Shown: positions 7,607 through 37,905, counted from the stretch's first letter. The stretch is 64,000 bases of DNA from an uncultured Candidatus Saccharibacteria bacterium (GCA_963514895.1 CAUPVK010000002.1:12323-76322), one strand, 5' to 3'. The notes: a model not told the origin generated them from the sequence alone. Numbers and translations are program-made.

Positions 7607-8169
7607 TGTTGGCCGATTCCTTTCTTGAATGTGACACTGTAGGTTGAGGTGTAGGGATAGCTACCGGCGTCTTTGTCTTGCAGTGTGATGGATTGGAAGC
7701 TGACGCTGGAGAAGATGGCAGAGTCATTGAGGCGGTTGCGTAGAGCAATAGCATCGTTGTAGCCTTTGGCGCGGATACTCAGCGTGGTGGGGGTGCCAAA
7801 GGTGGTTGGGTCGATATTAAGCTGCTCGATGATAACGTTGGGCGGAAGGCGATCGGCAATAAGCTTGATGAGGCGGGTGTACGAGACCTGTTGGTCGAGG
7901 ATGGCTTTGGCAGTAGTGAGGTTAGCCTTGAACTCAGTAGCTTCACGCTTGACGGTGGCATATTCGGCAGTTTTGTTGTGGTTGCGCTCTACGGCGGCTT
8001 CGTTGCGGCCACGCTCGGTTGCGATGAAAAAGTACACACCGCCGATTTCAGCCAAAACGACAAAGACCAAGACAAAGAGTAGCACAACATAGCGGCGTAG
8101 CAAGGTGTTGGTGCGGCTCGCAGCGAGCTGTTTTTTATACGCTGGTGGCAATAGATTAATCATTTCCAA
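7603..8169 (-). CDS. pilN: PilN-like type IV pilus assembly protein
   Basis: The 'INLLPPAYKKQ' N-terminus plus a TM helix is typical of PilN. It overlaps pilM and the downstream gene. Confidence 0.65.
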   Translation of the reverse strand: MEMINLLPPAYKKQLAASRTNTLLRRYVVLLFVLVFVVLAEIGGVYFFIATERGRNEAAVERNHNKTAEYATVKREATEFKANLTTAKAILDQQVSYTRLIKLIADRLPPNVIIEQLNIDPTTFGTPTTLSIRAKGYNDAIALRNRLNDSAIFSSVSFQSITLQDKDAGSYPYTSTYSVTFKKGIGQQ

Positions 8170-9218
8170 ATTTCCCCACTACTGAGGCTGGCCAAGCCTG
8201 CAACACTAATATACCGAGGCCGAAACTGCTTTTGTGGCTGCTGGAGCTTGCCAAAGTCAAGCTTTTGCCATGGATTAACGACGCGCACTGGCATGACGAG
8301 GTCGTTGGTGAAGAAGTCGCCCATGCCTGGTACATTGCTACCACCACCGACGATGACGATTTGCTCGATCTTGCGCTCATCACCAATCCGGTCGTTGTAA
8401 TAGCGGATCACCTTGCGGATCTCGGTGCTGATGCGCTTGAGGCTTGGTTTGAGTGCCTCAGTGATGCCAGCTTGGCGTGGCCCAGGCGAGAGGCCATTGA
8501 GCACCTTGAGCTGGTGGGCATTCTCGAGTGTGATGTTGAGATGCTTCGAGATGTCGATGGTGAAGGTATTGCCGCCAATTGCCACCCCACCAGTCAGGCG
8601 GACGGCACTTTTATCTAGCACGGCGATGTCGGTGCTCGCTGGGCCAATATCGACGACGAGCGTGAGAAGGTTGCCAGCATCAGCGCTGTCGAGCACGCGC
8701 GCAATCGCGTTGATATTGGGCTCAACAACCACCGGTACGAGTCCCACCGCCTCGGCCGCTTGCAAACAGGCGTCGACCAGCTGCTTGGGCACGGCTGACA
8801 TCACAACGTTGAGCTGCTCTTTGGTGTGCTCGATCACTTCATAATCAACATAGAGCGAATCGAGCGGCAAGGGGATATACTGGTCGACCTCTACCTGGAT
8901 AGCGCCATCGAGGTGTGCTGCCTCTTTGGCTGGGATCATGAAGGTGCGCGAGTAGGTGCGGCTGGTTGGCACACCAATCACTACGTGATCGCTACCAAGG
9001 TTACCAATGAGATGTTCGTTGATGAGCGAGCTGAGGCGCTCGGCCAGGTAGGAGTCATCAGGGTTGTCGAGGGACGTTTGGACTTCCTTTGGGTCAAGGT
9101 CGAGCGAACCATAGCCCAGCACGAGCCAGCGCTTGGAGTCGATCGACATAATTTTGATGCCTGTCTGACTAATGTCGAGACCGATGATTGGTTTGTCGCG
9201 ATAAAATAACTTTGCCAT
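8160..9218 (-). CDS. pilM: PilM, actin-like ATPase of the type IV pilus assembly platform
   Basis: 'IIGLDISQTGIKIM' and 'VVDIGPASTDIAV' are ASKHA phosphate motifs. The size and the operon context with pilN fit PilM. Confidence 0.85.
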   Translation of the reverse strand: MAKLFYRDKPIIGLDISQTGIKIMSIDSKRWLVLGYGSLDLDPKEVQTSLDNPDDSYLAERLSSLINEHLIGNLGSDHVVIGVPTSRTYSRTFMIPAKEAAHLDGAIQVEVDQYIPLPLDSLYVDYEVIEHTKEQLNVVMSAVPKQLVDACLQAAEAVGLVPVVVEPNINAIARVLDSADAGNLLTLVVDIGPASTDIAVLDKSAVRLTGGVAIGGNTFTIDISKHLNITLENAHQLKVLNGLSPGPRQAGITEALKPSLKRISTEIRKVIRYYNDRIGDERKIEQIVIVGGGSNVPGMGDFFTNDLVMPVRVVNPWQKLDFGKLQQPQKQFRPRYISVAGLASLSSGEIWK

Positions 9219-9418
9219 GATACGTTCGTTTCCGTCATTATAGCATAAGCGATATGATAAACGCTAGCGTTTTGATGAGGATTGTCACGGATCGGTAGAC
9301 TGTTGTTCGTGGTGTGATAATGGCAAAAAAGACAGGTTGCTGGCCAGTGGCAGATCACGCCATCGGATAAAGAACTAATATGTAGCTGAAACGCCGACAG
9401 AGAATAGGGAATCCAGTC

Positions 9419-28596: not shown

Positions 28597-29226
28597 TCAT
28601 TGCCCCTCTATCTTATCCATCAGTTTCGTCAGCTTCACGCCACCGTACATCCAGTGGTCAGCGCCGCGGTATGCACCGGAGTTGTTGACTTCGCCGCGTT
28701 GGGTGTAGATCAGGCGGGTGAGGGCAGACAGGCGCCAGGTTTTGCCGCCGTAGGATACCTCGCGTGGGCCGGCTACAACGGCGGTGATAGTTGGGTCTTT
28801 GATAAAGTGGATGCTCGCGCCCTTTTCAATACCCTTTTTATAAAAGCTAAAGCGCTGATCTTGCTGGTGCGCGGTGGTAACGGCTTCGAACGAGTCGGCC
28901 TTGCTAGCGAATTGAGTTGGCTTTGGGTAAATTTGCGTGCCATCAAGGGCAAGCAGCAGCCGCTGGATAAGATATTCATCGAGCGCAAAGAACTCACTCC
29001 GGCCAATGCGGTGCTTGCTAAAGACTTCGTGCAGGAGCTGCTCCTTTTTGTGGTAATTATCTACCTCAATGGCGACCAGCCGCTGCAACCCAGTGATATT
29101 AGAATAGCCGTTGGACTCAAGATACTGCATGCGCGCCTCGAAGCGGTCGGTGCTGGTCTTGCCAATCTTGACCAAGCCATCAATGGCACTGGTCATAACA
29201 TAAATCACTCCGCGCGGCTCGGACAT
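28597..29226 (-). CDS. GIY-YIG-like T5orf172/MUG113 domain protein
   Basis: 'GVIYVMTSAIDGLVKIGKTSTDRFEARMQYL......LLHEVFSKHRIGRSEFFAL' fits the T5orf172 pattern. The C-terminal half was not identified. It is divergent from hsdM. Confidence 0.5.
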   Translation of the reverse strand: MSEPRGVIYVMTSAIDGLVKIGKTSTDRFEARMQYLESNGYSNITGLQRLVAIEVDNYHKKEQLLHEVFSKHRIGRSEFFALDEYLIQRLLLALDGTQIYPKPTQFASKADSFEAVTTAHQQDQRFSFYKKGIEKGASIHFIKDPTITAVVAGPREVSYGGKTWRLSALTRLIYTQRGEVNNSGAYRGADHWMYGGVKLTKLMDKIEGQ

Positions 29227-29292
29227 GGTTTTATTGTAGCAGACTATGGGGTAGGGGAACAGTATTCTAGATAAATCTGCTATAATTCCCTT

Positions 29293-30771
29293 ATGAATAT
29301 GAGGGATCTTGAAAGGCAGCTGTGGGCTGCAGCGGATAAATTACGGGGTAATATCAGCTCGTCGGATTATAAATATGTTGTGTTGGGGCTAATTTTTCTG
29401 AAATATGTTTCAGATGCGTTTTCGGCGCGGTATCAGGCGGCGGTTGATGACAATTATGATCCCGAAGATCGGGATTGGTATCTGGCGGAGAATGTTTTTT
29501 GGATTCCCAAGGAGGCTCGCTGGGAGCACCTCGTGGCAAGCGCCAAGCAGCCAGAAATTGGCGTATTGGTTGATAGCGCCATGGAAGCAATTGAACGCGA
29601 CAATCTAAGTTTGAAGGGCGTTCTGCCGAAAAATTATGCTCGCGAAGCTCTAGATAAACGCCGCCTGGGTGAGCTTATCGATTTGTTTACAAACATCACA
29701 TTTGACACTGCTAGTTCTAAAGATTTGCTTGGTCAAGTCTATGAATATTTTATGGGTATGTTTGCCGACAGCGAGGGTAAACACGGCGGCGAATTCTACA
29801 CGCCGCGCTCCATCGTCAAGCTGCTGGTAGAAATGCTTGAGCCATACAGCGGGCGTGTGTACGACCCATGTTGCGGTAGCGGCGGTATGTTCGTCTGGAG
29901 CGAGAAGTTTGTCGAGGAGCATGCTGGACGTGTCAGTGATATCGCGGTGTATGGCCAGGAGCTCAACGAGACTACCTGGCGATTAGCGAAAATGAACATG
30001 GCAATTCGCGGAATAGATGCAAATATCAAACGCGGCGACACCTTGATGGATGACCAGCTTCCCGACCTGAAAGCGGATTATATCTTGGCCAATCCACCGT
30101 TTAATATTAGTGACTGGGGTCAAGAACATTTGCAGACTGACCCACGCTGGAAGTATGGACTGCCGCCAAAGGGTAATGCTAACTTTGCGTGGATTCAACA
30201 TATGATTCACCATTTGAGCCCGCGCGGTACGGCAGGCTTTGTGTTGGCAAACGGGAGCATGAGCAGCCAAACTGGCGGTGAAGGTGATATCCGTAAGCAG
30301 TTAGTGCTCAATGATATGGTTGACGCTATCGTCACGCTGCCGAGCCAACTGTTTCTCAACGTAGCTATACCGTGCTGCCTCTGGTTTGTGTCGCGTGATC
30401 GCGCCAATCGTCACGGCAAAGTACTGTTCATTGATGGGCGTAATTTGGGCAAAATGGTAACCCGTCGCAACCGCGAGCTGACCGAAGAAGATATTGCCAG
30501 GGTAGCGAAGACATATCATGACTACAAAACCGCCAGTGCGAATTACACTGACCAGCCGGGTTTCTGTAAAGTCGCTGATCTAGAAGAAATCAAGCAGCAT
30601 GATTATGTACTGACACCTGGCCGCTACGTGGGCATTGAAGAAACTGAGGAAGATGATGAGCTGTTCACTGAGAAATTTGCCCGGTTGACAGCTGAGCTAG
30701 AGGGTCAGTTTGCGAAGAGCCGCGAGCTAGAGGCGAAAATCAAGGTCAATTTGGAGAAGATCAAACTATGA
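29293..30771 (+). CDS. hsdM: Type I restriction-modification system, N6-adenine DNA methyltransferase subunit
   Basis: It has an HsdM N-terminal domain ('[10 protein letters not shown]'), the SAM motif '[11 protein letters not shown]' and the catalytic 'NPPFN'. Confidence 0.93.
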
Positions 30772-30910: not shown

Positions 30911-32119
30911 GTGAATAAAAAATACTCAATAGAATTTGCCGTAGAGGCTTCGACTGAATTCAAAGCGATCAATCGTCTCAAAGACCTAGGCGTAAGTCAT
31001 GCCGATGAGGCGAAGCTATCCGACCTCGATCGGCAGGCCGGTCTCTTCATGATTAAGGTATCGATGCTAGAGTCTGAAATGACCGATGAGGTGTATCATA
31101 AGATATCTAAGGCAAAAGACGTCTTCATACTTTCTGATGAACTTTCGGCTGCTCGGGGTGAAAAAATCTTACAGCTCACACTGGTGATTGAAAGGCAGCT
31201 TAAGAAGTTGCTTGTCTGCATAATCCCAGAGATAGAAAAGGTTTTGATAGATATCATTAATAATCATCAAAAACATGGCATAAAATCAACACCCACAGGG
31301 ATAATCGAGTGGTGTCAAAAGATTCATGATTTTTCATTTGGTGAGCTTCCGGGCGTTCTAGAGGAAGATATATCACGGCTTGCTAGGGAAAGGCTTAATA
31401 CGGGAGATGCCATGCTGTTGCTAATAGCAGAGTCGAAAGATTTTGATAACCTAAAGTTACGGGCGACAAATTTATTTGAGACCAGGACAGTTTGGAATAG
31501 TATTTGTTCTATTTTGGAAAGCCCTGTGCAGTACGAGCATATATCTGGAGCTTTGAATAAAGTTATAGATGCACGCAATAAAGCGGCGCATCAGAGCATA
31601 ATAACCAAAAAAATACTCGACCAAACTAGAAAAAATCAGAAACACATAATGTCACGCATTGGTACTATTAAGAGCACCTACCGTGAAAACCTAAAGGTGA
31701 ACATGGAGCAGCTAAGTAAGTCTATGAAAGCTATCATGGATTCTGTAGCAACGATTGATCCTATGATATTTACCGAATATCAAAAACATATTTCTCAGAC
31801 ATTTCGACCTCTTACCGAAGCTGTTGCTAGATTGAAGCTAAATATTACCTCGCCAGAATTCAAAAAAAATGTTACATATAATTCAGAAATCCAGTCTCAG
31901 TTATCGAAAGCCACTGCCGAATCTCTTAGAAACATGAAGTCCTTGCAAGTGTATAACGATATTGCTAGAGAGCTGGCAAAAAATAATTTCACTAGGTATT
32001 TGCAAAATTCACTAAGCGAGATAGACAGAATACAGCCAGATATTCAGAGACTACTTGATACAAAGGGGACAAGAGGGGGTGATGAGGCGGCAGAAAAAGA
32101 TGAGGAGCAGAAACAATGA
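30911..32119 (+). CDS. Uncharacterised protein with a HEPN-like (Swt1-type) R-x4-H motif, embedded in the Type I R-M operon
   Basis: This is a 402-aa ORF with a GTG start. 'FGELPGVL...VWNSICSIL...LNKVIDARNKAAHQSI' is present, with the R codon at 31574-31576 and the H codon at 31589-31591. The all-helical, coiled-coil-like C-terminal half ends in an acidic tail. The stop overlaps the hsdS start (ATGA). Confidence 0.5.
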   Translation: MNKKYSIEFAVEASTEFKAINRLKDLGVSHADEAKLSDLDRQAGLFMIKVSMLESEMTDEVYHKISKAKDVFILSDELSAARGEKILQLTLVIERQLKKLLVCIIPEIEKVLIDIINNHQKHGIKSTPTGIIEWCQKIHDFSFGELPGVLEEDISRLARERLNTGDAMLLLIAESKDFDNLKLRATNLFETRTVWNSICSILESPVQYEHISGALNKVIDARNKAAHQSIITKKILDQTRKNQKHIMSRIGTIKSTYRENLKVNMEQLSKSMKAIMDSVATIDPMIFTEYQKHISQTFRPLTEAVARLKLNITSPEFKKNVTYNSEIQSQLSKATAESLRNMKSLQVYNDIARELAKNNFTRYLQNSLSEIDRIQPDIQRLLDTKGTRGGDEAAEKDEEQKQ

Positions 32120-33156
32120 TGCAGATTGTTTCGCTCTCCGATGCAATTACCTTGCAGCGTGGGTTTGACTTGCCCACCTCACAACGTAGACAGGGTAAAT
32201 ATCCAGTCGTAGCGTCTACCGGAACAACTACGACTCATGATAAGTTTAAGGTAAAAGGTCCAGGTGTGGTTATTGGTCGCTCTGGCAGTATTGGTGGTGG
32301 TCAATATGTCGAAAGTGACTTTTGGCCCCTAAATACTACACTTTGGGTCAAGGATTTTAAGGGTAATGATGAGAAATTTATTTATTATACTCTTAAGTCT
32401 TTAGACTTTTCTAGCTTTAACGTAGGTGCAGCTGTACCTACGTTAAATAGGAACCACTTGTCGGCGCTAAAAGTGCGCATTCCTGACGTAGATAAGCAAA
32501 AGAAAATTGCCAATATCCTCGGCAGTCTTGATGAAAAAATCGAGCTCAATCGCCGCATGAACAAAACCCTCGAACAGCTCGGTCAAGCTCTCTTTCGTCA
32601 TTATTTTGTTGATAAAGCTAGGCAGAGTAATGGCAATATACAGACTATACCTTTAGGAAAAAAGCTTCATCCAAAAAGAGGCAGAAGCCTTCAAGCTAGA
32701 GATATGATTTGTGGTGACACGCCGGTTATTAGCGGTGGACTGAAGCCAGCCGGATTTCACAATGAAGCAAATACGACCGCGCCAGTTATCACGATAAGTG
32801 CATCTGGAGCAAATGCTGGTTTTGTATCTGTCTGGGGTGAACCAGTTTGGTCGGCAGACTCTTCGTATATTGACTCAACAATTACCAAATATGTCTATAC
32901 CTACTATTTATTCCTCAAGAACAAGCAAAAAGAGATATACGATATGCAAACTGGCTCTGGTCAGCCGCATATTTATCCAAAGCACATAGAGCTTTTGGAG
33001 ATTGCTGATTTATCAGAATGCGAGTTTAATGATTTCGAGCAGAGAGTACGACCATTGTTTGATATGATACATGAAAACAAGAAGGAAATAGATTATTTAT
33101 CCAACATTCGTGATTTGCTTTTACCAAAACTAATTTCCGGAAAGATTAAGATATGA
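32116..33156 (+). CDS. hsdS: Type I restriction-modification system specificity subunit
   Basis: Two target-recognition domains are separated by the conserved helical spacer 'IANILGSLDEKIELNRRMNKTLEQLGQALF', and it ends with 'IRDLLLPKLISGKI'. Confidence 0.85.
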   Translation: MMQIVSLSDAITLQRGFDLPTSQRRQGKYPVVASTGTTTTHDKFKVKGPGVVIGRSGSIGGGQYVESDFWPLNTTLWVKDFKGNDEKFIYYTLKSLDFSSFNVGAAVPTLNRNHLSALKVRIPDVDKQKKIANILGSLDEKIELNRRMNKTLEQLGQALFRHYFVDKARQSNGNIQTIPLGKKLHPKRGRSLQARDMICGDTPVISGGLKPAGFHNEANTTAPVITISASGANAGFVSVWGEPVWSADSSYIDSTITKYVYTYYLFLKNKQKEIYDMQTGSGQPHIYPKHIELLEIADLSECEFNDFEQRVRPLFDMIHENKKEIDYLSNIRDLLLPKLISGKIKI

Positions 33157-34442
33157 AACGCACAAAAGCACAAATAGACAATTTATTAGACGATATAGCG
33201 CAATTTACCATAGTGCTAAGCAGTAGTAATTATAGTATAAACTATGGACCCAAAAACCTAAATTTCTCATCTTTCGAGAGAAGTATCGATGAAAATCTTA
33301 AATACTGGCACGATAAAAAGGGAGGCCAAGGCTTTTATGAGGAGTGGAAAAACCTCAAAAATAAATTTAATAGTATTAAAGAACATTTAGAGGCCGTTAG
33401 CGATAGCCCTGAATCAAAAGGTAATCTATCAAACTATCTATATAGTCATTTATCCAATGACAGAGTCGATAATAATGGAAAGCATACATATAGATTATCT
33501 GTAAATAGCCCTATTATCTCTGACGCAAATTGGCAATCCATAGACAGATTCATAGATTTTTATCTTGACCGTGTAGATGATGGTAGAGAATTACCAGACG
33601 CAATACGAAGGTACGTAGAGTTATGCAAAACTCCAATTCAGGTAGGAAATAGCCTATATCAAAGTTCAAATTATTCATATTATCCTGCGTTATTTATACT
33701 AAAAAATGAATTATCGCCTAAAAATGTAAGTATTAAGAATTTTGAACAAAAGACGCTACGGCCAGCGCAAGATAAGCTAGAGCAGTTGTTGCAAGAAGCT
33801 GGCGAGAACCAACAAGAAATAACCCATTTTATAGAAGAGAAGCATAAGGAAGTCCAGGATCAAGTTGATAAGAATATCGCTGAGATGGACGACTACAAAT
33901 TTAAAGTCAATGATTGGGAGACGAAAAAACATAAAAAACTGGATGTACTGGAAGATACTTATAGAAAGAAGTTGCAGCTTGAAGCGCCGGAAGTGCTTTG
34001 GAATGAACGGTCTGAAAAGTATAGAAAAAGAGCCAATTGGTGGACTGTAGGCTTAGTTCTTGCGGCGATTATCTTGTTGCTTGTCATCGCCTGGTTTGTC
34101 CATTCGCTTCATGAATTCCCAAAGGGGATTACTGAAAAAGTACCATTCTTGTCGCAGCAAGTACTTTTTATTGGTGTCATTTCTTTCTTTGTTTATATCA
34201 TACGCGTCATAGTAAAAATCGTTATGTCAAATCACCACATTGCAATGGAGTATGAACAAAAAGCGGCATTGACGAGGTTTTATCAGGCGTTAACCTACAA
34301 AGGGATTGAGGTAGACGATAACGAGAAGTTAATCATCATGAGCGCTCTATTCTCTAAAGCTGACACCGGTTTGGTTAAAACGAGTGAATCTGTTGACTTG
34401 GATAGCGTCTTGGGATTGATTACAAGGAATTCTGGAAAATAG
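33153..34442 (+). CDS. Uncharacterised protein with a C-terminal two-TM module, embedded in the Type I R-M operon
   Basis: This is a 429-aa ORF. The N-terminal ~290 aa are soluble, Lys/Glu/Asn-rich with a coiled coil. Then come 'ANWWTVGLVLAAIILLLVIAWFV' and 'VLFIGVISFFVYIIRVIVKIV', followed by a ~70-aa tail. The start overlaps the hsdS stop (ATGA). Confidence 0.55.
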   Translation: MKRTKAQIDNLLDDIAQFTIVLSSSNYSINYGPKNLNFSSFERSIDENLKYWHDKKGGQGFYEEWKNLKNKFNSIKEHLEAVSDSPESKGNLSNYLYSHLSNDRVDNNGKHTYRLSVNSPIISDANWQSIDRFIDFYLDRVDDGRELPDAIRRYVELCKTPIQVGNSLYQSSNYSYYPALFILKNELSPKNVSIKNFEQKTLRPAQDKLEQLLQEAGENQQEITHFIEEKHKEVQDQVDKNIAEMDDYKFKVNDWETKKHKKLDVLEDTYRKKLQLEAPEVLWNERSEKYRKRANWWTVGLVLAAIILLLVIAWFVHSLHEFPKGITEKVPFLSQQVLFIGVISFFVYIIRVIVKIVMSNHHIAMEYEQKAALTRFYQALTYKGIEVDDNEKLIIMSALFSKADTGLVKTSESVDLDSVLGLITRNSGK

Positions 34443-34528
34443 ATATAAGTGTTATAATGATGTGAAAATGATCAATAAAACATAAAATACGTTACCTGAA
34501 GAAAATACTCTAAATTTTAAAAGCCTAT

Positions 34529-37500
34529 ATGACCGAATCTCAAATCGAACAATACGCGCTTGATATTCTAGCTAATCTTGGCTGGCAAGTTTTACATGGG
34601 TCAGATATTGGTCCGGATGGTGCTATGGCTGAGCGTGAGCTGCGGCAGGTAGTGCTGCTGGGGCGGCTGTATGGTGCCCTGGTGCGGCTCAATCCACACA
34701 TTCCAGAACCAGCTTTAAATGAAGCGATGCGGCGTTTAACGCAGATTAGTAAGCCAAGCTTGATCGAGAATAACCACGTTTTTCATCAACTGCTGGTGGC
34801 TGGTGTGCCGGTGCAGTATCGCACATCGAGTGGCGAAGTGAAACACGATATCGTGCGGGTGGTTGATTTTACCTCGCCAAAAAACAATGATTTTGCGGCG
34901 GTGAATCAGCTGACGGTTCTGCAGGGTGACTATAATCGCCGGCCGGACATTGTGCTATTTGTGAATGGCTTGCCGCTGGTGGTGATTGAGCTGAAAAATG
35001 CGGCCGACACGAAGGCGAATTTGGCGGCAGCGTATCAGCAAATCCAGACGTACAAGCGAGAGATTAGTGATCTGTTCCGCTTTAATGAATTATGCGTAAC
35101 GAGCGATGGACTAGAGGCGGAGATGGGCACGATCACCAGTCCGCTGGAACGAATGATGCCATGGAAGACGATTGATGGTGAGAAGGAGGTTGGCAATGTG
35201 CCGATGCTGGGAGTGTTGCTGCGTGGTGTGTGCACGCCTGAACGCTTGCTGGATGTGGTGCAGAATTTTATCGTATTTGAGCATAGTGATGGTGACAAAT
35301 TGATTAAGAAAGTAGCTGCTTACCATCAATATTGGGTGGTAAATAAGGCGCTTGATCGGACGCTGGCAGCCAGTAGTGAACGCGGCGACCAGCGGGCTGG
35401 CGTAGTCTGGCATACGCAAGGGTCGGGCAAGAGCTTGAGCATGGTGTTTTACACTGGCAAGCTGATGAAGTCGCGCGATTTGCACAACCCGACCATCGTG
35501 GTGGTGACGGATCGCAATGATCTTGATGGTCAATTATTCGGTACGTTTAGTGCTTGTCGCGAGCTACTGGGAGAAGATCCAAAGCAAGCTAATTCACGGA
35601 GTGAACTCAGGAAGCTGTTGCAGCGCGAAGCAGGTGGAATTATCTTCACAACAATCCAAAAATTCTCGCCTGAGGGTGACGAAGATAAATTACCGATTTT
35701 GACTGATCGACGCAATGTTATCGTGATGGCAGATGAGGCCCATCGCAGTCAATATGGCTTGAAGGCACATGTCCGAGCTAGTGATGCTCAGCTGGTGTAT
35801 GGTTATGCCAAGTATATGCGCGATGCCTTGCCGAGTGCGAGCTACATTGGCTTTACGGGTACACCGATTGAAACGGATGACAAGTCAACGCCAGCGGTGT
35901 TTGGCGACTATATCGATATTTATGACGTCGAGCAGGCGGTGAAAGACGGCGCAACGGTGCCGATTTATTATGAGAGTCGGCTGGTTGATTTGAACATGGA
36001 CGAGGCAACGCGGCAGTGGCTGGATAAGGAAGTTGATGATTTGCTGGAGGGCGAAGAATTGAGCCGTCAGGATGCACTGAAGGCCGAGTATGCACAGAAA
36101 GAAGCCATCGTTGGTAATAGTGAGCGGCTGAATACTATCGCTTTGGACATTATTCAGCACTTTGAGGCTCGGCAAGGCGTCCTGAGTGGCAAAGGTATGA
36201 TCGTGACGATGAGCCGCAGTATTGCGGCTGATTTGTATGAAAAAATTGTGGCGTATCGGCCGGATTGGCACAGTGACGATGACGCACGCGGCGTAGTAAA
36301 GGTGATTATTACTGGTAGTGCTAGTGACCCTGACCATTTGCAACCGCATATTCGTAACAAGCAGCGGGTAAAGACGATCGAAAAGCGCATCAAAGATCCG
36401 AACGATCCGCTTGAATTGGTGATTGTATGTGACATGTGGCTGACAGGATTTGATGTGCCGAACATGCACACCATGTATCTGGATAAACCGCTCAAAGGGC
36501 ATAATTTGATGCAAGCGATTGCCAGGGTGAATCGAGTGTTTCCTGGGAAAACCGGCGGTTTGGTGGTTGACTATCTGGGTGTAGCGGGGGCGCTGCGCGA
36601 TGCTATTTCTGACTATACACGGAGCGGTGGTCAAGGCGTACCACAGCTTGATATTGCTGAGGCGGTGGCACAGATGCAGATGCGTTACGAGGTGGTGCGC
36701 GATTTGTTTGGTAACTTTGACTATCAACGATATTTTACCGCACCAACCGACCAACAGCTACAGATTATCTTGGATGCAGAGGAATATATTTTAGGATTGG
36801 AAGATGGTGAGAAGCGGTTGAAGCAGCATGTTTTGGAACTGAGTAAAGCATTTGCATTGGCGATGCCGAGGCCCGAGGCGCTGAAAATTCGCGAAGAAGT
36901 GGCGCTCTTCCAGGCAATAAAAGCTCGGCTGGAGAAAGTGTCCAGCTCGGCGGTGGTGACTGATGCTGAGTATCGCAGTGCGCTGAAACAAATTGTTGAT
37001 AAAGCAATTGCGCCAGTCGGTGTGGTCGATGTGTTTGAGGCGGCAGGGCTCAAAAAGCCGGAATTGTCGATTTTAAGTGATGAGTTTTTGGCCGAAATTC
37101 GTCATATGGAGCGCAAGAATTTGGCGGTGGAGGCGTTGCAAAAGCTGCTCGCTGATGAAATTAAGCTACGATTTTCGCGCAATTATGCCAAGGATACGAA
37201 GTTCTCAGACTTGCTGAGTCAAGCCTTGACACGGTATAGAAATGGGACAATTGAGGCCGCGCAAGTGATAGAGGAGCTGATTGCTATCGGCCAGGAAGTG
37301 CGCCAAACTGTCGAGAATGGAACGATTGACGGCCTCAGCGAGGATGAGGTTATCTTTTATGACGCGCTGGTTGAAAATGGTAGTGCTCGCGAAGTACTGG
37401 GTGATGCGCAGCTGCGTGATATCGCAAAAGTGTTACTAGAGCAAGTGCGTCGTGATGCCACGATTGACTGGGCAGAGCGTAAAAATGTTCAGGCAAAATT

Positions 37501-37660
37501 GAGGGTTAACGTCAAAAAGACGTTGGCAAAATATGGCTACCCACCAGATCAGCAGGCGCTAGCAACTGACATGGTACTAGAACAAGCTAAGCGCTATGGT
37601 AACGAGTGGAGTCAAAGACGCGCGGCGTATGATGCTGGTGGAGCGAGTCTGCTTGATTAA
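34529..37660 (+). CDS. hsdR: Type I restriction enzyme, endonuclease/translocase subunit
   Basis: It has an N-terminal PD-(D/E)xK region ('PDIVLFVNGLPLVVIELK') and SF2 helicase motifs 'HTQGSGKS', 'VMADEAHRSQ', 'FTGTP' and 'QAIARVNR'. Confidence 0.93.
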   Translation: MTESQIEQYALDILANLGWQVLHGSDIGPDGAMAERELRQVVLLGRLYGALVRLNPHIPEPALNEAMRRLTQISKPSLIENNHVFHQLLVAGVPVQYRTSSGEVKHDIVRVVDFTSPKNNDFAAVNQLTVLQGDYNRRPDIVLFVNGLPLVVIELKNAADTKANLAAAYQQIQTYKREISDLFRFNELCVTSDGLEAEMGTITSPLERMMPWKTIDGEKEVGNVPMLGVLLRGVCTPERLLDVVQNFIVFEHSDGDKLIKKVAAYHQYWVVNKALDRTLAASSERGDQRAGVVWHTQGSGKSLSMVFYTGKLMKSRDLHNPTIVVVTDRNDLDGQLFGTFSACRELLGEDPKQANSRSELRKLLQREAGGIIFTTIQKFSPEGDEDKLPILTDRRNVIVMADEAHRSQYGLKAHVRASDAQLVYGYAKYMRDALPSASYIGFTGTPIETDDKSTPAVFGDYIDIYDVEQAVKDGATVPIYYESRLVDLNMDEATRQWLDKEVDDLLEGEELSRQDALKAEYAQKEAIVGNSERLNTIALDIIQHFEARQGVLSGKGMIVTMSRSIAADLYEKIVAYRPDWHSDDDARGVVKVIITGSASDPDHLQPHIRNKQRVKTIEKRIKDPNDPLELVIVCDMWLTGFDVPNMHTMYLDKPLKGHNLMQAIARVNRVFPGKTGGLVVDYLGVAGALRDAISDYTRSGGQGVPQLDIAEAVAQMQMRYEVVRDLFGNFDYQRYFTAPTDQQLQIILDAEEYILGLEDGEKRLKQHVLELSKAFALAMPRPEALKIREEVALFQAIKARLEKVSSSAVVTDAEYRSALKQIVDKAIAPVGVVDVFEAAGLKKPELSILSDEFLAEIRHMERKNLAVEALQKLLADEIKLRFSRNYAKDTKFSDLLSQALTRYRNGTIEAAQVIEELIAIGQEVRQTVENGTIDGLSEDEVIFYDALVENGSAREVLGDAQLRDIAKVLLEQVRRDATIDWAERKNVQAKLRVNVKKTLAKYGYPPDQQALATDMVLEQAKRYGNEWSQRRAAYDAGGASLLD

Positions 37661-37905
37661 TGCGAGGCTCCATGAAAATCCCCACCACTATCAAACCCAA
37701 CTCCCGCCACCGCGAAGAAGTTGTGGTGGGTAGCGACGGCACGTATATCATCTACACCAAGGCGCCGGCAATTGAGGGCCGGGCGAACGCGGCGGCCATT
37801 AAGCTGTTGGCTAAGCATTTTGGTGTGAGCAAAAGCCAGGTTCGACTGTTGCGCGGGGCGACATCGAAGTATAAGGTATTTGATATTGACGGCATAGTTC
37901 TATAA
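37660..37905 (+). CDS. DUF167 (YggU-like) protein
   Basis: 'YTKAPAIEGRANAAAIKLLAKHFGVSKSQVRLLRGATSKYKVF' matches the DUF167 core. The first ATG overlaps the hsdR stop (TAATG). An alternative ATG lies at 37672. Confidence 0.65.
   Translation: MRGSMKIPTTIKPNSRHREEVVVGSDGTYIIYTKAPAIEGRANAAAIKLLAKHFGVSKSQVRLLRGATSKYKVFDIDGIVL

Follow-up and report, generated by a model that had tools for sequence, protein, structure and literature searches.

AbiZ of Lactococcus lactis, encoded on plasmids of the pTR2030 type, is an abortive-infection (Abi) protein that causes premature lysis of the infected cells, with a small burst (PMC6356687, summarising Durmaz & Klaenhammer 2007; PMC13064643). In its presence, cells expressing the phage holin plus endolysin lyse faster and holin-expressing cells are more permeable, and AbiZ, to which no functional domain has been assigned, is said to cooperate with the holin, thereby advancing the lysis clock (PMC6356687; PMC13064643). 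PrrC, a soluble ABC-ATPase plus tRNA nuclease that is held by a restriction-modification (R-M) enzyme and senses its inhibition, is encoded between hsdS and hsdR of the EcoprrI type IC locus and follows a layered logic, with restriction first and suicide second (PMC12707154). In Ronin, which combines the effector RonA with an HsdMS decoy and is found beside BREX, the gene of the membrane-targeting effector is tightly tied to hsdS/hsdM (bioRxiv 10.1101/2023.04.06.535777). The gene analysed here is located at positions 33153-34442 (plus strand) of a 64,000-nt stretch of DNA, hereafter the window, from an uncultured Candidatus Saccharibacteria bacterium (GCA_963514895.1 CAUPVK010000002.1:12323-76322), between hsdS and hsdR of a type I R-M locus. 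It starts with ATG and encodes a protein of 429 aa, which is a full-length member of the AbiZ (DUF6161) family.

The protein and AbiZ (432 aa) are homologous over their full length and show the same order of parts, namely an N-terminal domain (N-domain), a long helix, two transmembrane (TM) helices and a tail of the form EYxQKAALTxFY...LFSxxDTGLxK. Their settings differ: the gene of the window is chromosomal, belongs to Saccharibacteria (Patescibacteria/Candidate Phyla Radiation) and is translationally coupled to hsdS within a type I operon, whereas lactococcal abiZ resides on a Firmicute plasmid, alone and with flanks of its own. The lactococcal copy likewise has R-M and Abi genes in its neighbourhood, not adjacent to it. 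With PrrC the gene shares its place between hsdS and hsdR, and a layered logic of the same kind is proposed here. However, the AbiZ-like protein is a membrane protein that has no homology with the soluble PrrC and whose relatives also occur in R-M-free contexts; neither PrrC nor any ABC-ATPase or nuclease family was found among the Pfam, PADLOC and NCBIfam matches. Ronin resembles this locus in the tight link of a membrane effector gene with hsdS/hsdM and in its association with BREX, beside which AbiZ-like variants of 545 aa are also encoded. RonA, however, is a 61-aa peptide with a single helix that is not homologous to the 429-aa protein with its two helices, and Ronin is usually devoid of hsdR, whereas the hsdMSR set is complete in the window.

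The original prediction had delimited this open reading frame (ORF) exactly and had proposed an Abi effector with a soluble N terminus and a C-terminal membrane module, without being able to name its family. Profile searches provided the name, and AbiZ (DUF6161), the founder, has the same architecture. The PADLOC model of AbiZ (PDLC02354) matched aa 44-417 of the protein, corresponding to positions 30-388 of the 398 in the profile, with E=1.1e-48 and 164.5 bits, and Pfam DUF6161 matched aa 208-412 (profile positions 12-214 of 216) with E=1.4e-54 and 185.2 bits, against a cutoff of 27 bits. By BLASTP, 27% identity over aa 149-417 (E=4e-33) was obtained with WP_032398699.1, a protein encoded on the lactococcal dairy plasmid pUCCL629C. 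This protein, which may differ from the published AbiZ of pTR2030, was taken as a lactococcal AbiZ on the basis of its score with the AbiZ model (552 bits, full-length), and its gene is located near, not adjacent to, AbiA and an LlaJI-type restriction enzyme. The N-domains have diverged beyond the reach of BLAST, and a profile-profile comparison is needed to relate them. When N-domain alignments were compared with hhalign, 175 columns were aligned between this N-domain and that of the lactococcal AbiZ group, with a probability of 95.7% and E=9.6e-9. Since the N-domain is also homologous, the protein is a full-length AbiZ homologue and not merely the carrier of a related membrane module.

Homologues are numerous. 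A word-indexed search retrieved 762 of them at E<=1e-3, and an exhaustive search at the same threshold gave a family of 1,967 clusters at 50% identity. Together with a ratio of nonsynonymous to synonymous substitution rates (dN/dS) of 0.14-0.28 against the orthologues, this indicates that the ORF is a real gene and not a chance reading frame. DUF6161 was carried by all of the 51 diverse members scanned, lactococcal AbiZ included. The closest homologues are 77-99% identical, and those with a name belong to Candidatus Saccharibacteria (oral taxon 488 and uncultured oral or gut metagenome-assembled genomes), followed at about 40% identity by proteins of Streptococcus sobrinus, S. suis and metagenome contigs; a scan of genome contigs with the single protein gave Saccharibacteria matches only. 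No relatives were found in the phage collections IMG/VR and INPHARED / GenBank phages, and a phage origin was rejected on these grounds. PHROGs returned one weak family of unknown function only, and weak matches to DUF2207_C, all of them under the cutoff, recurred in the Pfam scan (30 of the 51 members). A housekeeping membrane protein, the alternative raised with the original prediction, was not what emerged: the protein does not belong to any such family. DUF6161 is listed in Pfam as a domain of unknown function, yet it covers lactococcal AbiZ itself, which constitutes an annotation gap. A 2025 preprint describes a Pseudomonadota DUF6161 family as being without detectable homology to known defence proteins (10.1101/2025.01.08.631966).

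The enrichment in Asn, Lys and Glu noticed at the outset was borne out over the N-terminal 290 aa (K 10.3%, N 8.6%, S 8.6%, E 8.6% and D 7.9%). Within this region, aa 1-190 (33153-33722, plus strand, like all the protein features below) form a cytoplasmic alpha/beta domain, which AlphaFold2 (AF2) models with a predicted local distance difference test score (pLDDT) of 90 and a predicted template modelling score (pTM) of 0.85 when taken alone, and with a pLDDT of about 90 within the full-length protein. Its invariant residues are mostly aromatic or hydrophobic and do not make up any catalytic-looking motif; the domain is presumed to have a sensor-like or regulatory role. It is followed by one long charged helix (aa 194-275; 33732-33977), modelled as a single helix by AF2. 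A coiled coil had been proposed for this stretch, of which the long charged helix stands, while the coiled coil was not established: only 29% of the residues are hydrophobic, the heptad signal is weak (39% of the a/d positions hydrophobic in the best register) and the helix is highly charged.

Two TM helices, predicted originally at about aa 297-320 and 338-360, were placed close to these positions by the Kyte-Doolittle scale, TM1 at aa 296-316 (34038-34100; mean value 2.56) and TM2 at aa 332-350 (34146-34202; mean value 2.06). They are preceded by the conserved motif LExTYxxKLxLEAPxxxW and then a basic flank (aa 279-295; 33987-34037). The flank ahead of TM1 contains five basic and two acidic residues, the 15-aa loop between the helices is neutral and the segment beyond TM2 contains two basic and no acidic residues. 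According to the positive-inside rule, this charge bias places the N-terminal 295 and the C-terminal 79 residues in the cytoplasm, and the protein therefore forms an N-in/C-in hairpin. Both TM segments are helical in the AF2 model, where the hairpin has medium confidence.

Beyond TM2, a juxtamembrane amphipathic helix and a tail, both cytoplasmic, extend over aa 351-412 (34203-34388). The tail had been singled out as conserved-looking, and EYEQKAALTRFYQALTYKG indeed proved to be conserved better than any other motif of the family, with Y367 and K370 invariant and with E366, Q369, A372, T374, R375, F376 and Y377 conserved in at least 90%. Among the 51 diverse members, P279, H362, G406 and L407 are also invariant, and L266, Y270, L274, K355, S359, F400, D404 and K409 reach at least 90%; R351 is invariant in closer sets of homologues. 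R351, K355, S359, H362, E366 and K370 form a polar stripe after TM2 that is confined to a 100-degree arc of the amphipathic helix (hydrophobic moment of 1.19 for helix 347-366). Conservation is thus focused on four sites, namely LExTYxxKLxLEAPxxxW, this stripe and the tail motifs EYxQKAALTxFY and LFSxxDTGLxK.

Neither this protein nor AbiZ has a structural relative in the PDB (PMC13064643 for AbiZ). Fold searches of the PDB gave no significant match for the whole AF2 model (best E=1.1) and no match for the N-domain model (best E=1.4, TM-scores up to 0.24), and the viral structure library BFVD contained no significant match to the whole model (best E=0.018, with low TM-scores). The sequence-profile search of the PDB returned SNAP-25 only (E=0.27), which is a helix artefact. 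A small helical hairpin as presumed membrane-active module is also found in class II holins (two TM domains, N-in/C-in), RexB and SLATT-domain effectors, and the N-in/C-in topology of the former is matched here by the charge bias. However, holins and SLATT proteins have no sequence or profile similarity to this protein, no holin family appeared among the Pfam results for the protein itself or the 51 members, and holins possess nothing equivalent to the large N-domain and the conserved tail, both of which are cytoplasmic. A SLATT-like module was rejected at the sequence level. No recurrent SLATT match was found by Pfam (E<=1) in the 51 members, and the leads were weak, both in NCBIfam (SLATT_1, E=0.062, 13 bits against a 41-bit cutoff) and in Foldseek (a SLATT protein with E=0.18 and TM-scores of 0.16-0.21).

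In order to place the gene in its genomic setting, 103 related loci (designated by L numbers) were fetched from genomes and metagenomes, the metagenome census having been made with a 12-sequence alignment that covers relatives at about 27-88% identity. After dereplication at 95% AbiZ identity, 15 informative Saccharibacteria clusters were obtained, and hsdS was located directly upstream of abiZ in all 15, in agreement with the expectation that the gene should be conserved in related hsdMSR loci. In the window, hsdS (32116-33156, plus strand) encodes a type I specificity subunit of 346 aa, recognised by two stretches of Pfam Methylase_S and by PADLOC Specificity_I (365 bits), and its TGA stop codon shares the sequence ATGA with the ATG of abiZ. 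This 4-nt overlap is kept in nearly all the clusters, the exception being L024, and a GGAG-like motif about 10 nt upstream of the abiZ start is also conserved. The HsdS of the window and those of related loci are about 33% identical, as expected from swapped target-recognition domains; the last 35 or so codons and the junction with abiZ are nevertheless conserved.

The gene hsdR (34529-37660, plus strand) encodes a type I restriction subunit of 1043 aa with the Pfam domains HSDR_N, SWI2_SNF2, T1R_D3-like and T1RH-like_C. Two extended -10-like motifs of the TGnTATAAT type were located on the plus strand. One of them, TGCTATAAT (29278-29286), ends 6 nt upstream of the ATG of hsdM and is the putative promoter of hsdM-orf402-hsdS-abiZ (orf402 lies between hsdM and hsdS); it was absent from the output of a generic sigma-70 scan because it has no -35 match. 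The other, TGTTATAAT (34450-34458), lies 8 nt past the stop codon of abiZ as a putative separate promoter of hsdR, and is kept in all the orthologous loci with a short spacer (window, L001, L009 and L010). No terminator-like site was found between hsdS, abiZ and hsdR. Judging from these two motifs, the genes would be divided into two transcription units, the first of which (hsdM-hsdS) probably ends with abiZ. Given the spacing of TGCTATAAT, the hsdM mRNA may be leaderless. The operon alone devotes about 8.4 kb to defence.

One important question is whether abiZ is a fixed component of this type of hsd operon. HsdR orthologues that are 77-89% identical reside in operons without a DUF6161 gene, and the slot between hsdS and hsdR is occupied in these by other genes: Abi_C in L107, overlapping hsdS by 4 nt and hsdR by 1 nt; DUF3644 in L106, with 4-nt overlaps on both sides; a 226-aa unknown in L104 and an HTH-Panacea module in L105, both with gaps on either side. 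Since orthologous operons hold other genes in this slot, abiZ is interchangeable cargo and not an enzyme subunit, and its consideration as a core subunit of the operon type was rejected. The slot after hsdS is interchangeable. Across the Saccharibacteria/Patescibacteria hsd operons (L104-L107, L001-L011, L022-L028), at least three positions carry variable cargo. In related loci, RhuM/PDC-S05, a KAP NTPase (PifA-like), a HATPase_c protein and unknowns are found between hsdM and hsdS, and AbiL (RloA/RloB), HTH-Panacea (HTH-SocA_Panacea), M78 peptidase and PIN-like genes between abiZ and hsdR.

The dN/dS range of abiZ given above corresponds to purifying selection, which acts on all three protein regions, and is less strict than that of hsdM and hsdR (0.03-0.055). 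With a GC content of 0.37, abiZ is below both hsdM/hsdR (0.49-0.50) and the window as a whole (0.51). Five loci were compared for dS, and in three of them, L003, L004 and L006, that of abiZ was about 0.5-0.6, whereas that of the flanking hsdM/hsdR was 1.4-2.9 or too saturated to be estimated. The lower dS together with the lower GC content suggests a more recent horizontal exchange of the hsdS-abiZ cassette within a conserved hsd backbone. In L010 the abiZ orthologue (8001-9284) is split into two ORFs (204 and 218 aa) that retain the full-length alignment, and is either a pseudogene or an assembly error.

Outside Saccharibacteria, 46 informative clusters were available, in which the R-M counts are lower bounds because of the limited R-M seed set and the many short contigs. 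A co-oriented upstream gene within 60 nt was present in 10 of these 46, and in nine of the ten it belonged to a methylation-based defence system. The partners of these tightly coupled copies include an EcoRI-type endonuclease with its methylase, a C5-methylase with an NgoPII-type endonuclease, a BpuJI-type operon followed by Abi_C, a type IIG MmeI/Eco57I-like enzyme and a BREX PglX-like methylase; two more copies, with wider spacing, are preceded by type III Mod-Res operons. When the count was limited to the 26 clusters with at least three genes visible on each side, co-oriented R-M genes occupied position -1 in four and position -2 in five, and positions +1 and +2 in none. No R-M gene was present within four genes in 27 of the 36 loosely spaced copies, the neighbours of which are housekeeping genes or a mobile-element primase-helicase, and all the plasmid-borne distant members examined stand alone. 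The best-supported reading of these contexts is repeated capture: in several lineages, methylation-based defence operons have acquired an AbiZ relative at their 3' end.

N-domain relatives with 50-61% identity are found with EcoRI-type, NgoPII-type or type III partners, or with none. As close N-domains pair with differing systems or stand without one, the N-domain is not an adaptor for a particular R-M subunit; an adaptor for one R-M type was likewise rejected, as identities do not track the type of partner.

Some of these loci have an organization of their own. In L095-L100 (L098 3906-12855; L096 252-8023), an AbiZ variant of 544-566 aa, with an extra N-terminal extension of about 120 aa, is encoded in a BREX-like locus with the order PglX-like methylase (1248 aa), AbiZ-like protein (after a 6-nt gap), OLD-family AAA_15/TOPRIM ATPase (26-nt gap), AAA-ATPase_like plus PD-(D/E)xK protein and PglZ. 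In Streptococcus sobrinus and relatives (L013-L015, L035 and L052), the AbiZ-like copy is located within a type I hsd island that reads hsdR, a DUF6290/ParE toxin-antitoxin pair, HicAB, AbiZ-like, a reverse transcriptase (RVT_1, 543 aa), a 196-aa unknown, hsdS, a HAD-like protein, Fic, PemK/MazE and hsdM. In L059 and L092 (3665-9287), a C5-methylase, the BpuJI endonuclease, a second C5-methylase, Abi_C and the AbiZ-like gene follow each other with gaps of 2-17 nt, so that two distinct Abi-type genes stand in series behind one R-M system.

We consider that the protein is probably an autonomous Abi effector of the AbiZ type, which brings about premature lysis and, being expressed along with the restriction enzyme, adds a second layer of defence. 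The holin-linked lysis is proposed by analogy with AbiZ. The N-in/C-in hairpin would anchor the protein in the cytoplasmic membrane, leaving in the cytoplasm the globular N-domain of about 190 aa, the charged helix of about 80 residues and the conserved amphipathic juxtamembrane helix with the tail. The protein would be inert until late infection, when cooperation with the phage holin, or with another membrane-acting phage product, would lead to early permeabilisation of the membrane; the cell would then lyse ahead of virion completion and the burst would collapse. Through its translational coupling to hsdS and its probable last place in the hsdM-hsdS unit, abiZ would be made together with the type I R-M enzyme, and its product would form the second layer against phages that escape restriction. 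Autonomous action of the single gene is suggested by its near relatives, which stand alone beside housekeeping genes or on plasmids, although the Saccharibacteria copies are always coupled to hsdS. Several points weigh against this account. Identity to lactococcal AbiZ is low (27% in the C-terminal two thirds and about 11% in the N-domain), and the mechanism of AbiZ reportedly comes from a single study, that of Durmaz and Klaenhammer in 2007. The split orthologue of L010 indicates that abiZ can be lost. The invariable hsdS coupling and the recurrent attachment 3' of R-M/BREX genes exceed simple co-location in a defence island, and could reflect a functional dependence that lies outside an autonomous model. 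In addition, a preprint describes AbiZ as a block of early transcription with an N-terminal anchor (10.1101/2024.10.26.620412).

The chief alternative is that, in the manner of PrrC or Ronin, HsdM/HsdS or another attached methylation-based system holds the AbiZ-like protein inactive; once a phage anti-restriction factor disables that system, the protein would be freed and would permeabilise the membrane, and a failure of restriction would be sensed instead of a late phage product. This guardian role is attractive because of the gene position and the tight coupling, that is, the place between hsdS and hsdR that is also the place of prrC (PMC12707154), the hsdS located directly upstream in 15/15 clusters with the ATGA overlap in nearly all of them, and the probable membership of abiZ in the hsdM-hsdS unit and not in that of hsdR. 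There is also a precedent in Ronin, whose membrane effector is tied to hsdS/hsdM and triggered by Ocr and ArdA (bioRxiv 10.1101/2023.04.06.535777), and the tight copies outside Saccharibacteria, nine in ten downstream of a methylation-based defence gene, with co-oriented R-M genes at -1 and -2 only (4/26 and 5/26, none at +1/+2), point in the same direction. It is weakened by the stand-alone relatives, which comprise most of the copies outside Saccharibacteria and all the plasmid copies examined, and by the indifference of the N-domain to its partner, which is hard to square with specific binding to an R-M subunit. Besides, lactococcal AbiZ is treated as a single-gene system (PMC13064643), unrelated genes are also housed in the slot after hsdS, as expected of a cargo hotspot, and Pfam and PADLOC searches gave no sequence similarity to PrrC or RonA. 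We therefore regard such guarding by the R-M system as unlikely. Its generalisation, according to which the AbiZ proteins at the 3' end of type I, II, IIG and III R-M and BREX operons are generic guardians freed by phage anti-restriction factors, is a distinctly doubtful proposition; if true, different effectors (AbiZ, Abi_C, DUF3644 and others) would be plugged in after hsdS in hsd operons of the Saccharibacteria type and share one HsdMS sensor, and the principle of PrrC and Ronin would be extended to a large, widespread family and to ultra-small episymbiotic bacteria.

A membrane anchor without any recognisable enzymatic domain would also suit a non-lethal block at the membrane, such as superinfection exclusion or a block of DNA entry, and the low-GC cassette, seemingly exchanged later than the hsd backbone, would fit the selfish spread of an addiction-type module that stabilises the hsd cassette; type I toxin genes (PepG1 and a holin-like toxin) are close by on two plasmids. 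We hold both to be very unlikely, in view of the homology to a protein with a reported phenotype of abortive premature lysis (PMC6356687; PMC13064643), the lack of a conserved antitoxin-like neighbour in the related loci and the fact that no relatives borne by phages or prophages, the usual home of superinfection-exclusion genes, were found in the phage collections searched. As to the plasmid toxin genes (L012 3903-4046, PepG1; L102 6802-6918, 'putative holin-like toxin'), they lie at most about 1.3 kb from the DUF6161/AbiZ gene of two Lactobacillales plasmids, and this proximity may be a coincidence. Finally, abiZ might be a decaying or inert passenger of the Saccharibacteria genome, as the interrupted orthologue of L010, a dN/dS several-fold above that of hsdM and hsdR and the orthologous operons that manage without it could be taken to suggest. 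This is hardly credible, since the frame of 429 aa is uninterrupted here and in nearly all relatives, all three protein regions are under purifying selection at a dN/dS of 0.14-0.28, and conservation extends to the start/stop overlap and to the GGAG motif upstream.

A previously uncharacterised gene now has a name, and annotation of the PADLOC type would flag it as a full-length AbiZ homologue; the locus is therefore not a new kind of system. Both the family itself and Abi genes embedded in hsd loci were already known. The novelty lies in the phylum of the host, in a translational coupling to hsdS that is fixed, in the evidence that the slot after hsdS is interchangeable and in the repeated attachment of AbiZ relatives to the 3' end of five kinds of methylation-based defence operon, a pattern of which no description was found in the searchable literature. 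An Abi-type membrane effector is thereby placed in an oral genome of the Saccharibacteria, which are episymbionts with genomes of less than 1 Mb and about whose phages, to our knowledge, hardly anything is known. In the hsd lineage studied, Abi-type genes can replace one another directly after hsdS, frequently with a 4-nt overlap between hsdS and the gene that follows, and the repeated occurrence of AbiZ relatives at the 3' end of methylation-based defence operons offers a concrete test of independence from restriction against the guarding of restriction.

As for the remaining genes of the row, hsdM (29293-30771, plus strand) encodes a type I methyltransferase subunit of 492 aa (Pfam N6_Mtase, 380 bits; HsdM_N, 92 bits) that is 85-96% identical to those of related loci. 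The slot between hsdM and hsdS is occupied by orf402 (30911-32119, plus strand; 402 aa), a variable cargo ORF whose 3' end overlaps the start of hsdS by 4 nt. It had been referred to as a HEPN protein and considered a possible partner of the AbiZ-like protein, a role that does not agree with its distribution, as no counterpart was found in any of the 103 loci. Its match to HEPN_Cthe2314 is weak (E=0.035), its sequence includes ARNKAAH, which is compatible with the Rx4H motif of HEPN proteins, and no match was obtained with PADLOC, NCBIfam or PHROGs; it looks like a cargo unique to this slot and is possibly an uncharacterised HEPN effector. Downstream of hsdR, the co-directional row continues with a DUF167 gene (37660-37905, plus strand). 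Upstream of hsdM and divergent from it, a T5orf172 / MUG113 (GIY-YIG-like) protein is encoded on the minus strand (28597-29226), which matches PDC-S57, a candidate defence family of PADLOC, with E=4.5e-51. This gene is 96% identical in L001 and thus belongs to the syntenic locus.

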